From assembly GCA_964016885.1 (NCBI GenBank), contig OZ024740.1, positions 346,580,001-346,644,000 on the forward strand: a DNA stretch of 64,000 nt, in the 5' to 3' direction. The position numbers and the translations under genes were made by a program. The notes under the pieces are model-generated. The model worked only from the letters and a program-made list of their open reading frames with translations, searched no databases and was not told where the DNA came from. Source of the DNA: Eledone cirrhosa (taxonomy: Eukaryota). This document shows positions 24,655 to 64,000 of this stretch, in pieces. The first letter of the stretch is position 1; each line of letters opens with the position of its first letter.

Positions 24655-24905
24655 GCTTTCTTTATTAACCACAAGGGTTTACATAAAGTAGACATTAAGC
24701 AGAGTACAGGACAATACAGGACGGTACTAATGGGCATTTCTGCGTGTAAAAAAACAAAAACAGAGGATGTAACAAAAACATAACAAGGAAAATTCCCCAA
24801 TAGGGGAGAGACTTCCGAGGGACGTTTGTGGAGAAAGCCCATTAAAAGGCCACAGTGACCCTGACCACCAGGTCAAGTGCCTTCTCCCAGTTTTCAACCT
24901 TTAAT

Positions 24906-27900
24906 TTACAGACACATACTCAGAGTAGGCCCATTCACTCGGGCCATACTTGCTTCTCTCACCCATCTTTCAACAAAATGCTGCGGGAAGAGAGCATTTC
25001 CCTCTCTACCCTGATTTTCCTTTTCAAATGAAATTTGAAAGAGTTAATCAGGGCATCACCGATGAGGTAAGTGATCGTCTTCAGCCCTTTCAAACGTATC
25101 CACCATACTATCTCTTTCGCCATGGCCACCAGACATATGAAAACTGCCTGCCCTTCCCGGCTAAAGGAGGAGGGCGGGGCAATCCTCAAGATGGATTCAG
25201 CTGATAGCTGGATACGTCCTACAGTTGACAGCAGGTTTTCGACATGAACCCACAAGTCAGCTATGCTCGGACACTGAACGAGTGCGTGCAGGACGGTTTC
25301 ATCGCCCTGCGCGCATCTAGGACATGCCCGGCTGACGGCACCTCCATGCCTGTAGAGTTTATCCCGACTGCCAAAGCTCCTCAGTAGCACTGCCAGGCCA
25401 GGGATATCTGGAAGTTGTCCATAGGCCCCGGCCCGAAATTTCTTCCGAAGAGATTGGCTAGTTGATTTTCGTCGACGCCTAGACTTTCTCCAAGTACGTC
25501 GTCGCTCTTCCCCTCCACTAATCCTCTATAGAACGCCAAGGTGGAGTTTCCAACGATCACATTGCCCGATTGGTCGAGCGCTGTGAGCACCTGAAGACAT
25601 TCCAGTCTCCAAGCGCTCCCTCCTGGTCTTAGCTTGACACATGACTGCAGCTCCGTCAAGGAGACGAGCTGGGGAAAGACGCGTCTAGCAAACGGCGACC
25701 ACACCTGATCACCGTCGAGGAAGAGGTGGAGATGTCGTAGCCTGAGCGCGTGTCTGCGCATCATCAGCCACGGCATGCCCAGCCCCCCGCGTAGCGGGTG
25801 TTGACAGCAGATGGACCGTCTGACCATCGGAGCGCGTTCCTTCCCCAAAAAGCGAAAGAGCAAACGCTCCAGCGCATTCACGCGGGGCTTAGGACAAGCC
25901 ACGACGGTCAGGCGGTAGCAGATGACGGACGCGATGTACGCGTTAGCCACCTCCGCTCGAGCTTTCAGGTATAGCTTCCTCTCCGCAATTTCTGAGTGAG
26001 AGAAGTCGGCCTGCTCGTCACCTCGTTCCTGTTTTTGTACGTCTGGAGGTTCTGACCGAACAAGACCCTAGCAATTTAACCGGTCCGTTGGGGGAGGGGG
26101 GATTAGACCTGCCTCTCCAGATGCCGAGCTGCAGGCCCACTGACCTGGTTGATCATTGCTCCTGTCACCGCTTCGTATTCTCTTAGTGTAGTGCCCATCG
26201 CCTGGATGTGTTTGGCGTTCGAAACCACTACGGTGGCATCGTCCGCATATGCTGACACAGATATTGCGCATCCTAGTTCGCGCAGGATGCCATTCAACGT
26301 CTCCTGTTTATGCAGTAATGGCTCGAGAGTCAATACGTACAAGAGTGACTGGAGGGGACATCCTTGGTGGACCGAGCGCATGATATTGAACGGTTCCGAA
26401 AAGTGACCGTTCACTCTCACCACAGAGCAGATGTCGCTGTGCATGGCAGCGATCCAGCCTCTGAAAACGTGTCCAAAGCCAGCCGCCCTCAGGACTGCCA
26501 CTAGGTAACGATGGTCGACCCTATCGAAAGCTTTCGACTGATCTAAATTGATCAAGGACCCACCCATGCCAGTTTCCCTAGCTACCCTCTCTACGATGTA
26601 TCGCATGAGGTGGAGGTTGTCGTGGATGGATCTGTCGGGAATGGAGCATGTCTGTGCCTCTCCCACCAGACCACCAACGACAAGCGCCAACCTCTTTGCT
26701 AGCACCTTGGCCAAAATCTTGAACTCTGTGTTTAGCAGAGTTATGGGCCTAAAATTATCTATGTTATCCCCCTTGTTCGGATCCTTTCTCAGCAGCGCCA
26801 CGGCTCCTCCGCTCACAGAGCTGGGAATTATTCCGTTCTGTTGCCAGTTGCAGTAGACGTCCGCCAAGAGGCCTCCGAACAAGTTTGGCATATGTACGTA
26901 AAGTTCATAGGGCAGACCATCCGGACCAAGCGATTTACCCTTTGTGCTGCCTGTCATTGCCTCCCATACTTCAGCGGCTGTTATCGGCTTTTCGCAACAC
27001 TCCGCCTCATTGGCCAAGAGCCACGGCAGTCCGGCGAGGTAGACACTAAAGCCCGCCACTGCCCCCGAACAGCTGAGCGATGTGTCGCTGAAAAGCTTCG
27101 CACATTTGCCCGGGATCGAATAGCATGCGCCCGTAGTGGTCCACCAAATACCAGATCGTGACTTTGTTACAATGACGCGCCTCCGCCACTCGGGCCCATT
27201 GAACCGCTTTCGCCCCCTCGTGTCTGAGAGCACGCACCCTAGCTCTGACAACGCAGCCTTCGTGCTTTGCATTGAAGGATTGGTCAAGGGCCAATTGCGC
27301 CGCAAGTACGTCGGTCGCGATGCCTTTGCTTAGCGCCTCGTCTAATTTTCTAACTAGTTCTCCCTCTGCTCTATTTTTCTCTATTGCTAAAGCCTTACTA
27401 AACATAATGGACTCTATTCTAATCGCTCTTTCAGAGCAAACCACCAATTGTTGTTGATGATGGCCGCCGTCAACGCCCGCTTAACTAGTTCGCTAATCCC
27501 GTCTATGTAGGCCTTGCGCGCTGGTAAGGACGCTTTTAACTTCCAGTAGCCGGGTCCTCGTCTATGAAGCCTATCTAAGTCAAGCACACAGATCACGAAT
27601 TTGTGGACCGTGTAGCTGACTATCTTGAATTGTGGTCAGCTTATGCTAGACCTATCTATTTCCCTACAAAATACTCTATCTAGATATGATCTGGATGAAC
27701 CTATCCGATTTGTGCAAGTCCACATTGGCACATTCGAGAAATCCAATCCGTACCTGTCAGGCAGTTTAAAACGCCTGAGCAGGTTGGTGAGGCTCGTGCA
27801 CCCTCCTCCCCTATCCGTTAATCCCACACAGTCCCAGCGTGCATCTTAGATTCCGTTCCAGTCGCACACTAACACTAAAGAGCGGGACGTTCCAAGAAAG

Positions 27901-28329
27901 GTCTCCAGACGCCGGAAGTATCAGGCCACCCTGCTGCTGTTGGGGCATAGACGGCCACCCTGCTGCTGTTGGGGCATAGACGGCCACCCTGCTGCTGTTG
28001 GGGCATAGACGGCCACTAGCCTGTAAGCTTGCCTGTCTACGCTGATCACGTCCAGCACGACCAATTTACCTTCTGGGTCCAGGAAGATGGCCCGTATCGC
28101 GAGATCCAAACCTCTCCGAAAAAGCACAGCAACTCCACCCCCCGATCCAGGACGGCTGGGAGATGCGTACACATCGTAGCCGCGCAAGATCGGTGCGATG
28201 GCCCGTGCTTCGGAGATCCTGGTCTCGCTGATGGCCACTACATCTATGTTTAGTGACCAGAGGTCGTTGAGCAGGTGGCCCTGCTTCCATGACGACCCGA
28301 AGCCACGCGCCGATTCTGAGTAAGGTCAT
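24906..28329 (-). pseudogene. Tx1-A1 ORF2 (APE-RT), multiple frameshifts
   Basis: ORF pieces are collinear with the 788-aa ORF of copy A2. Confidence 0.9.
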
Positions 28330-63294: not shown

Positions 63295-63375
63295 AACAAC
63301 ATTAATAATAATAATAATAATAATAATAATAATAATAATAATAATAATAATAATAATAATAATAATAATAATAAT

Positions 63376-64000
63376 GACTTCATTTATTGGCCAGAAGGGC
63401 CGACATATAGGGGACAATACAAAAGACCCTGGACAGTGGGGTTTTACAGAAAATTCGAGTAAACAATATGAATAACAATAACAAAGTAACAATAACAAAG
63501 TAACAATAAAGTAACAAGAAAATTAAAACAAGAAAAAATTCTCCAATAAGGGGGATGGCCACCTAGGATTCGCTCAGGTACCCCACCAGTCCTGAACGAC
63601 CCGACGCTTCGAGAGCACCCTGGAAGGTCACCCCTCTGCTCCTCAAATTTACCTACCTACAGCCGCATGTCCAGAGTAGACCTACGCACACGGGCCATTC
63701 TCGCCACATTCGCCACCTCTCAGCAATGTACTGGTGGGCAGCACTTCTCTCTCCAACCTCACCTTCCTTTCCAAGTGAAACTTGAAAAAGTTGATGAGGG
63801 ATTGGCCGAAGATAAAAGTGTCTGTCTTCAGTCCTTTCAACCTCGTCCACCATACAACCTCTTTCGCTACTAACACCAGACAGAGGAAAATTGCCTGCCC
63901 TTCCTGGCCAAAAGAAGGCGGCGTGTCGATCTTCACTATGGACACAGCCGATAGCCGGATCCGTTCTACACGCGACAACAGCTGTTCAACATAACTCCAC
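63376..64000 (-). mobile_element. 3' part of a Tx1 element, family C (runs off the window)
   Basis: The ORF2 C-terminus AKEVVWWTRLKGLKT is homologous to A/B, but the 3' UTR is distinct. AATAAA is followed by (ATT)n. Confidence 0.9.

Follow-up and report, generated by a model that had tools for sequence, protein, structure and literature searches.

Several retrotransposons without long terminal repeats (non-LTR retrotransposons) are known to insert into simple tandem repeats. Dong elements insert in TAA repeats in Bombyx mori, Anopheles gambiae and Biomphalaria glabrata (PMC3812793), and the sense strand of the silkworm Dong construct carries 7 TAA upstream (PMC3774820). In the Tx1 clade, repeat targets are (TC)n for Kibi, (TTC)n for Koshi and (TTCC)n/(TTTC)n for crocodilian elements (PMC4494074). 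TRAS and SART, both of the R1 clade, insert in opposite directions in the telomeric (TTAGG)n repeat and form arrays there (PMC7265360, PMC10088271). Dong-R4 and L1-Tx1 elements have both been recently active in Octopus vulgaris (PMC13282606), and the available parts of PMC13282606, PMC8967140, PMC9115989 and PMC10294476 contain no analysis of their targets in octopus; PMC4640811 and PMC8869645 give further background. Here we describe a 64-kb stretch of Eledone cirrhosa DNA (contig OZ024740.1, positions 346,580,001 to 346,644,000; "the window") in which both kinds of element occupy (AAT)n microsatellites, Tx1-type elements on one strand and Dong/R4-type elements on the other.

Unless outside loci are named, all counts of local copies refer to the whole window, which is AT-rich and contains abundant microsatellites. 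All 12 (AAT)n runs of at least four units lie inside two stacks of elements (24634-48161 and 56804-63375) and have AAT on the plus strand; the two (ATT)4 runs both lie outside the stacks. Six of six Tx1-type 3' ends that read into (ATT)n are on the minus strand (A to F in Table 1), and the Dong/R4-type 3' ends that read into (AAT)n are on the plus strand in 3/3 cases (Dg1 to Dg3). A first-pass annotation of this DNA had counted the same six and three insertions in both stacks, and domains, junctions and 3'-end profiles bear the count out; it lacked a seventh Tx1-type copy (G, in (TATC)n), which lies outside the range it covered, and a head-like segment, U, upstream of Dg2. It had also called the partition strict, which is correct for all Tx1 and Dong 3' ends in AAT tracts; a caveat is U, a likely Tx1-derived piece on the plus strand that lacks a Tx1 3' end. 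Searches of the window with 3'-end profiles, which were derived from these very elements except D, gave seven significant Tx1-type matches (six on the minus strand in AAT tracts, and G on the plus strand) and three Dong-type matches, all on the plus strand; no further significant end of either type was detected. The six Tx1 ends in AAT tracts have a common junction register, namely AATAAA, 5 or 6 nt, C and, across the junction, ATT.

A Fisher test of the partition (6/0 versus 0/3) yields p=0.012, or p=0.033 when U is scored as a Tx1 copy on the plus strand (6/1). For a single kind, the probability of a uniform orientation by chance is p=0.031 for Tx1 (6/6) and p=0.25 for Dong (3/3). Homology between A and C and between B and E ends at the tracts, and their flanking neighbours are not alike; the copies are thus separate insertions, and block duplication was rejected as the origin of the stacks.

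The arrangement resembles that of TRAS and SART in that two site-specific families share one tandem repeat, insert in opposite directions and form arrays. It differs in that TRAS and SART both use an apurinic/apyrimidinic endonuclease (APE), belong to one clade and are telomeric, whereas here an APE kind and a kind with a restriction-like endonuclease (RLE) meet in interstitial microsatellites. The Dong-type elements resemble those published in having a single open reading frame (ORF) with reverse transcriptase (RT), CCHC motif and PD-D-K nuclease, insertion in TAA repeats and TAA on the sense strand (PMC3812793, PMC3774820); PMC3812793 places Dong among APE-type elements, and those of the window carry RLE motifs. 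A difference is that about 1 kb, with a likely Tx1-type head, precedes the ORF of Dg2; in three relatives outside the window (L002, L007 and L011), the first coding match begins after ~0.2-0.7 kb. The HDV-like (hepatitis delta virus-like) ribozyme present at the Dong 5' junction (PMC3774820) was not detected: there was no Rfam match, and a descriptor run without a positive control gave 0 hits in the window. The Tx1-type elements share with the microsatellite Tx1 families the use of simple-repeat targets; their sense strand is also T-rich at the target, and (CTT)n, as read in Tx1 sense, encloses stack 1, a comparison that presumes the published Kibi, Koshi and crocodilian repeat units to be written in element sense. 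They differ from those families in their targets, (ATT)n and (TATC)n, and in that their 3' junctions lack poly(A).

In the literature covered, which excludes most subscription papers and Repbase Reports and therefore makes for a weak negative, there was no (ATT)n-reading Tx1 family and no APE/RLE pair on one microsatellite. Repbase may include Tx1 families that target other microsatellites. The partition itself is real, if mostly expected; what is new are the Tx1 families that read into (ATT)n and the putative chimera discussed below. Whenever two site-specific elements share a non-palindromic target, their orientations are opposite half of the time, and direct precedent exists. It had been claimed that unrelated nucleases converged on one target; APE and the PD-D-K RLE are indeed unrelated, but the surprise was overstated, since fixed orientation is expected in a non-palindromic target and both Dong in TAA repeats and the TRAS/SART pair have been published.

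Table 1. Elements, tracts and duplications in the window (percentages as given by comparison of copies)
Feature	Position	Strand	Description
A	24655-30535	minus	full-length L1/Tx1-type, family 1, ORFs broken; RVT_1 and zf-RVT; 87-91% to C
A 3' end		 	sequence order AATAAA..C, (ATT)7, (CTT)n
B	30593-36448	minus	full-length L1/Tx1-type, family 2; APE and RVT_1; 93-94% to E
C	36500-42385	minus	full-length L1/Tx1-type, family 1; ORF1 with CCHC knuckle, APE, 809-aa RT+zf frame
D	56846-56919	minus	74-nt 3' stub, family 2; with tract 94% to B 3' end; profile E=4.5e-17
E	58025-63302	minus	L1/Tx1-type, family 2, internal deletions; APE resembles L1 endonuclease structures
F	63376-64000	minus	L1/Tx1-type 3' part, family 3, runs off window end; 70-71% to A, B, C and E (3' region)
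G	17421-18630	plus	5'-truncated L1/Tx1-type in (TATC)n; 63-68% to other copies (3' region)
Dg1	42436-43527	plus	5'-truncated Dong/R4-type; 98.9% to Dg2 3' part; CCHC, RHD, PD-D-K
U	43594-~44500	plus	likely Tx1-type 5' head: untranslated region (UTR) and start of T/P-rich frame, fused upstream of Dg2; right boundary approximate
Dg2	~44501-48116	plus	full-length Dong/R4-type; left boundary approximate
Dg3	56983-57995	plus	decayed 5'-truncated Dong/R4-type, second family; 29-37% amino-acid identity to Dg2
Stack 1 left end	24589-24654	plus	(AGA)15(AAT)7
Stack 1 right end	48117-48197	plus	(AAT)n(AAG)12
Head-to-head tract	42386-42435	plus	(AAT)16 between C and Dg1 5' ends
Head-to-head tract	56920-56982	plus	GAGGAT(AAT)19 between D and Dg3 5' ends
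Tail-to-tail tract	57996-58024	plus	(AAT)9 between Dg3 and E 3' ends
D target-site duplication	left 56798-56815, right 56920-56937		18 nt, GAGGAT(AAT)4, read from flanks

The tracts are targets, since two of them lie head to head, the target-site duplication (TSD) of D includes unique flank, and G lies in (TATC)n without an ATT tail. Each head-to-head tract adjoins two 5' ends and thus cannot be the tail of either neighbour; with 16 and 19 units, these tracts are not shorter than the tail-to-tail tract of 9 units. Every copy with both ends inside the window has tract on both sides, and tract is present at the 5' junctions of the truncated Dg1, D and Dg3, with AAT microhomology in the case of Dg1 and 2 nt of microhomology in that of D. 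The TSD of D contains GAGGAT, which is non-repeat flank. G, which spans 17403-18648 with its TSD, is flanked by an 18-nt duplication, TATCTATCTATATATCTT, followed by (TC)n; its 3' end is AATAAA..CAT, as in the Tx1-type copies of the AAT tracts, and no (ATT)n tail follows it. The earlier conclusion that the tracts cannot all be element tails stands on the head-to-head tracts and the TSD of D, but the argument from shared polarity by which it had been reached is invalid, because AAT tails on the plus strand and ATT tails on the minus strand look identical. (AAG)n borders stack 1 on both sides, and a Dong copy outside the window (L005, 8512-8604) likewise ends in (AAT)15(AAG)16.

In an outside test of the Dong-type elements, contigs of bacterial and archaeal representative genomes were scanned with a Dong protein alignment, which gave 27 loci (L001-L027). 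These are likely animal DNA that entered the bacterial and archaeal assemblies as host contamination. The loci were picked by protein query only, and AAT-class tracts were counted from at least four units. Such tracts were held by 10 of the 27 loci, and all 20 tracts read AAT in element sense, none ATT; in nine loci, from 7 assemblies, one of them lies at the 5' junction, a position that a tail cannot take. Some loci differ in their surroundings: L024, a 36%-identical Dong relative, has (TAG)n at both ends (5764-5844 and 8623-8754) as a variant target, L017-L020 and L026 hold several distant RT/RLE-type copies in tandem on the same strand without AAT spacers, and L016 continues into apparent 28S rDNA.

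The labels Tx1 and Dong are provisional ones that appear reasonable in view of domain layout and target. The Tx1-type copies in AAT tracts form three families, A/C (87-91%), B/D/E (93-94%) and F (~70% to the rest). Domain matches comprise Exo_endo_phos (B, C and E), RVT_1 and zf-RVT; the top PDB match of the APE of E is an L1 endonuclease (E about 6e-6), and the top Atlas match of ORF2 is an L1 ORF2 cluster (0.97). An N-terminal APE, RT, a C-terminal zinc motif and a separate ORF1 agree with the L1 group, and the position of the 3' ends in the window, 6/7 in (ATT)n and 1/7 in (TATC)n, agrees with the target preference of the Tx1 clade. The separate ORF1 has a C-x2-C-x4-H-x4-C knuckle in C, with Pro in place of His in B, and gave no Pfam match to an RNA recognition motif (RRM); type I ORF1 with a CCHC knuckle has been described for Tx1-consistent elements (PMC5203782). 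An Argonauta hians protein is the closest named match to ORF2 (69%), and none of the ORF2 homologues bore a Tx1 name. The 5' ends of B and E (36449-36475 and 63291-63305) have a common degenerate AAT-NTT-NTT-GGT lead-in, whose target-like bases seem to be carried by the transcript.

The Dong/R4-type copies carry RT, CCHC, RHD and a PD-D-K motif and no APE. This agrees with the R4/Dong layout of a single ORF with RT followed by CCHC and a PD-(D/E)xK RLE, as does insertion in TAA repeats with TAA on the sense strand (3/3 in the window, 20/20 tracts in the relatives). The ORF of Dg2 is broken by one frameshift (44618-45976 and 45949-48042), and its top PDB matches are R2 proteins over RT and RLE, the RLE match being second and weak. 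Homologues are single proteins, mostly of 1,050-1,200 aa when full length; residue 1 of the full-length homologues of Dg2 aligns at 44500-44750. No named Dong or R4 protein was among the protein matches. The heads of the full-length relatives L002 (131-260), L007 (3536-3620) and L011 (560-640) look, by eye, like what we take to be 5S-like/tRNA-like promoter boxes, and gave no Rfam match at E ≤ 0.5.

Between the Dg1 tail and the Dg2 ORF lies ~1 kb of sequence, most of which is U. Judged by its resemblance to the window elements, U is likely a Tx1-type 5' head. U and the A/C head align collinearly over the first 430-470 nt of U; the alignment starts at the 5' junction, crosses the first ATG and continues into the T/P-rich frame, and ~55% of the columns are alike over the first 230 nt. 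With U as the nhmmer query, the top non-self match in the window was the 5' end of A (E=0.017, high bias). An anchored alignment, whose ends were chosen after the resemblance had been noticed, scored 69, compared with a maximum of 41 among 2500 window tiles, and in 12 tests against local shuffles, 0-1 of the 500 shuffles per test matched the anchored score; in a local-alignment version, one AT-rich tile (16171) scored above A. BLASTN found no similarity between U and Tx1, and its first 400 nt went undetected with profiles of the heads of A/C or B/E (the A/C profile gave one short match to U, E=1.9). Due to these blank searches and the post hoc choice of ends, U is called likely, not proven. 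A motif at 44510-44610 that by eye seemed to be shared with the 5' UTRs of L007 and L011 gained no support from a profile search, and the boundary between U and Dg2 is thus approximate. Twin priming is an unlikely origin of U, as no Tx1 3' segment adjoins it.

U+Dg2 is likely a single Dong insertion that acquired its 5' end from a Tx1-type element; read in this way, it leaves the partition rule intact. If U were instead the remnant of a plus-strand Tx1-type insertion that lost its 3' part, with Dong arriving separately, the partition would not be strict. Such a remnant would fit the collinearity of U with the A/C head, which begins at the 5' junction, and the position of U directly after (AAT)17AAG. 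However, U contains no AATAAA and no Tx1 3' end, no AAT run is found at the U/Dg2 boundary, no Tx1 coding remains were found downstream of Dg2 (48116-56800), and (AAT)nAAG brackets U+Dg2 on both sides like one insertion. A piece with a 5' end only would moreover be atypical, as target-primed reverse transcription (TPRT) begins at the 3' end, and we regard a separate U as improbable. Even less credence can be given to the idea that the tracts are mere tails and that the partition arises by chance or from tails that happen to be complementary. A 3' end does adjoin both outermost tracts of stack 1 and the majority of the inner ones, and counted by family (3 Tx1, 2 Dong) the partition has p=0.10; but the two head-to-head tracts, the unique flank in the TSD of D and the 5'-junction tracts of nine Dong loci outside the window largely refute this idea.

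We consider it probable that two site-specific kinds of non-LTR element, one with APE and one with RLE, insert in pre-existing (AAT)n and prime on different strands, with a polarity led by the nuclease. In TPRT, the strand that serves as primer is the complement of the element sense. Given this and the fixed orientation, the priming strand would be the AAT strand for the Tx1-type families, probably with a T^A nick and with RNA and primer paired over up to three bases, and the ATT strand for Dong. The second nick at D would fall just beyond the tract. Each insertion would duplicate a piece of the tract (18 nt where it is readable, in D), slippage would likely re-lengthen it, and the duplicated tract could serve as the next target, so that the polarity of the tract that founded a stack would be passed on within it. 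Polarity would likely be due mainly to which strand the nuclease prefers to nick first, probably aided by RNA-primer pairing over a few bases. The first-pass annotation had proposed that the two endonucleases nick opposite strands; priming from opposite strands is very likely under standard TPRT, but the nuclease as the chooser of the strand does not follow from the partition, as RNA pairing would give the same one.

Polarity could alternatively be set by the RNA, if either strand can be nicked and only a primer complementary to the 3' end of the transcript is extended; orientation would then come from the donor, through AUU read-through for Tx1 and AAU for Dong. Both repeat strands contain one TpA in every unit, and the Tx1 AATAAA lies only 5-7 nt from the junction, so that with the usual spacing between AATAAA and the cleavage site, cleavage would likely occur in read-through repeat. 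The 3' end of Dg1 and Dg2 is itself repeat-like (GG AAT AAC AAT), and in SART1, R1Bm, the I factor, R2Ol and RTE the RNA 3' end is known to pair with the target (PMC7265360, PMC6007223). Against this, G lies in a different repeat without an ATT tail, which fits a protein-driven change of target, pairing alone does not explain how the tract is found, and exchange of the endonuclease (EN) domain between SART1 and TRAS1 exchanges their specificity (PMC7265360). Control by the RNA is unlikely as the leading cause, and it is compatible with the nuclease-led model. Several observations nevertheless weigh against that model. The repeat-like Dong 3' end and the AAT-NTT-NTT lead-in of the B/E head fit RNA pairing, and the phase of the nick within pure repeat is ambiguous by 1-3 nt. 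The sample comprises 9 insertions, 5 families and 2 stacks only, with the family-level p value given above, and U, which probably derives from Tx1, lies on the "wrong" strand. In 17 of the 27 outside Dong loci there is no AAT-class tract (several of these stop at a contig edge, and others are 27-37% relatives in other contexts), and the outside loci are not fully independent, because kin share targets. Finally, a scan of the same contigs for the Tx1 families gave 59 pattern matches, of which 0 were confirmed, and a search of plasmids gave no match; with no outside Tx1 locus found, the Tx1 polarity rests on the six window copies.

Other repeats in the window include an inverted repeat of ~960 bp with 90% identity and a 400-bp spacer (14412-15369 and 15787-16715). 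A dispersed repeat of 170-200 bp that resembles a short interspersed nuclear element (SINE) occurs in both orientations, with copies 76-90% alike, at 873-1068, 6172-6349, 19145-19353, 20119-20325 and 52404-52774. The segment 53805-54059 is a near-perfect palindrome of 255 bp, similar to a miniature inverted-repeat transposable element (MITE), and its arm is found again at 19342-19469.

The partition alone is predicted by theory and has a precedent. With one three-base target, two unrelated nucleases and, in addition, the close relative G on another repeat, the locus provides a natural paired test of nuclease versus RNA-primer pairing. It also shows that long AAT-spaced stacks of elements grow in an octopod-like genome, and such microsatellites are thus targets, not tails. 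Beyond this, we tentatively propose, while regarding it as somewhat doubtful, that APE and RLE lineages converged on opposite strands of (AAT)n and that the shared niche enabled them to swap parts, with a Tx1-headed Dong family as a chimera that spans the deepest division of non-LTR elements. If U+Dg2 represents a stable family, shared targets would promote the exchange of 5' modules between clades of long interspersed nuclear elements (LINEs).

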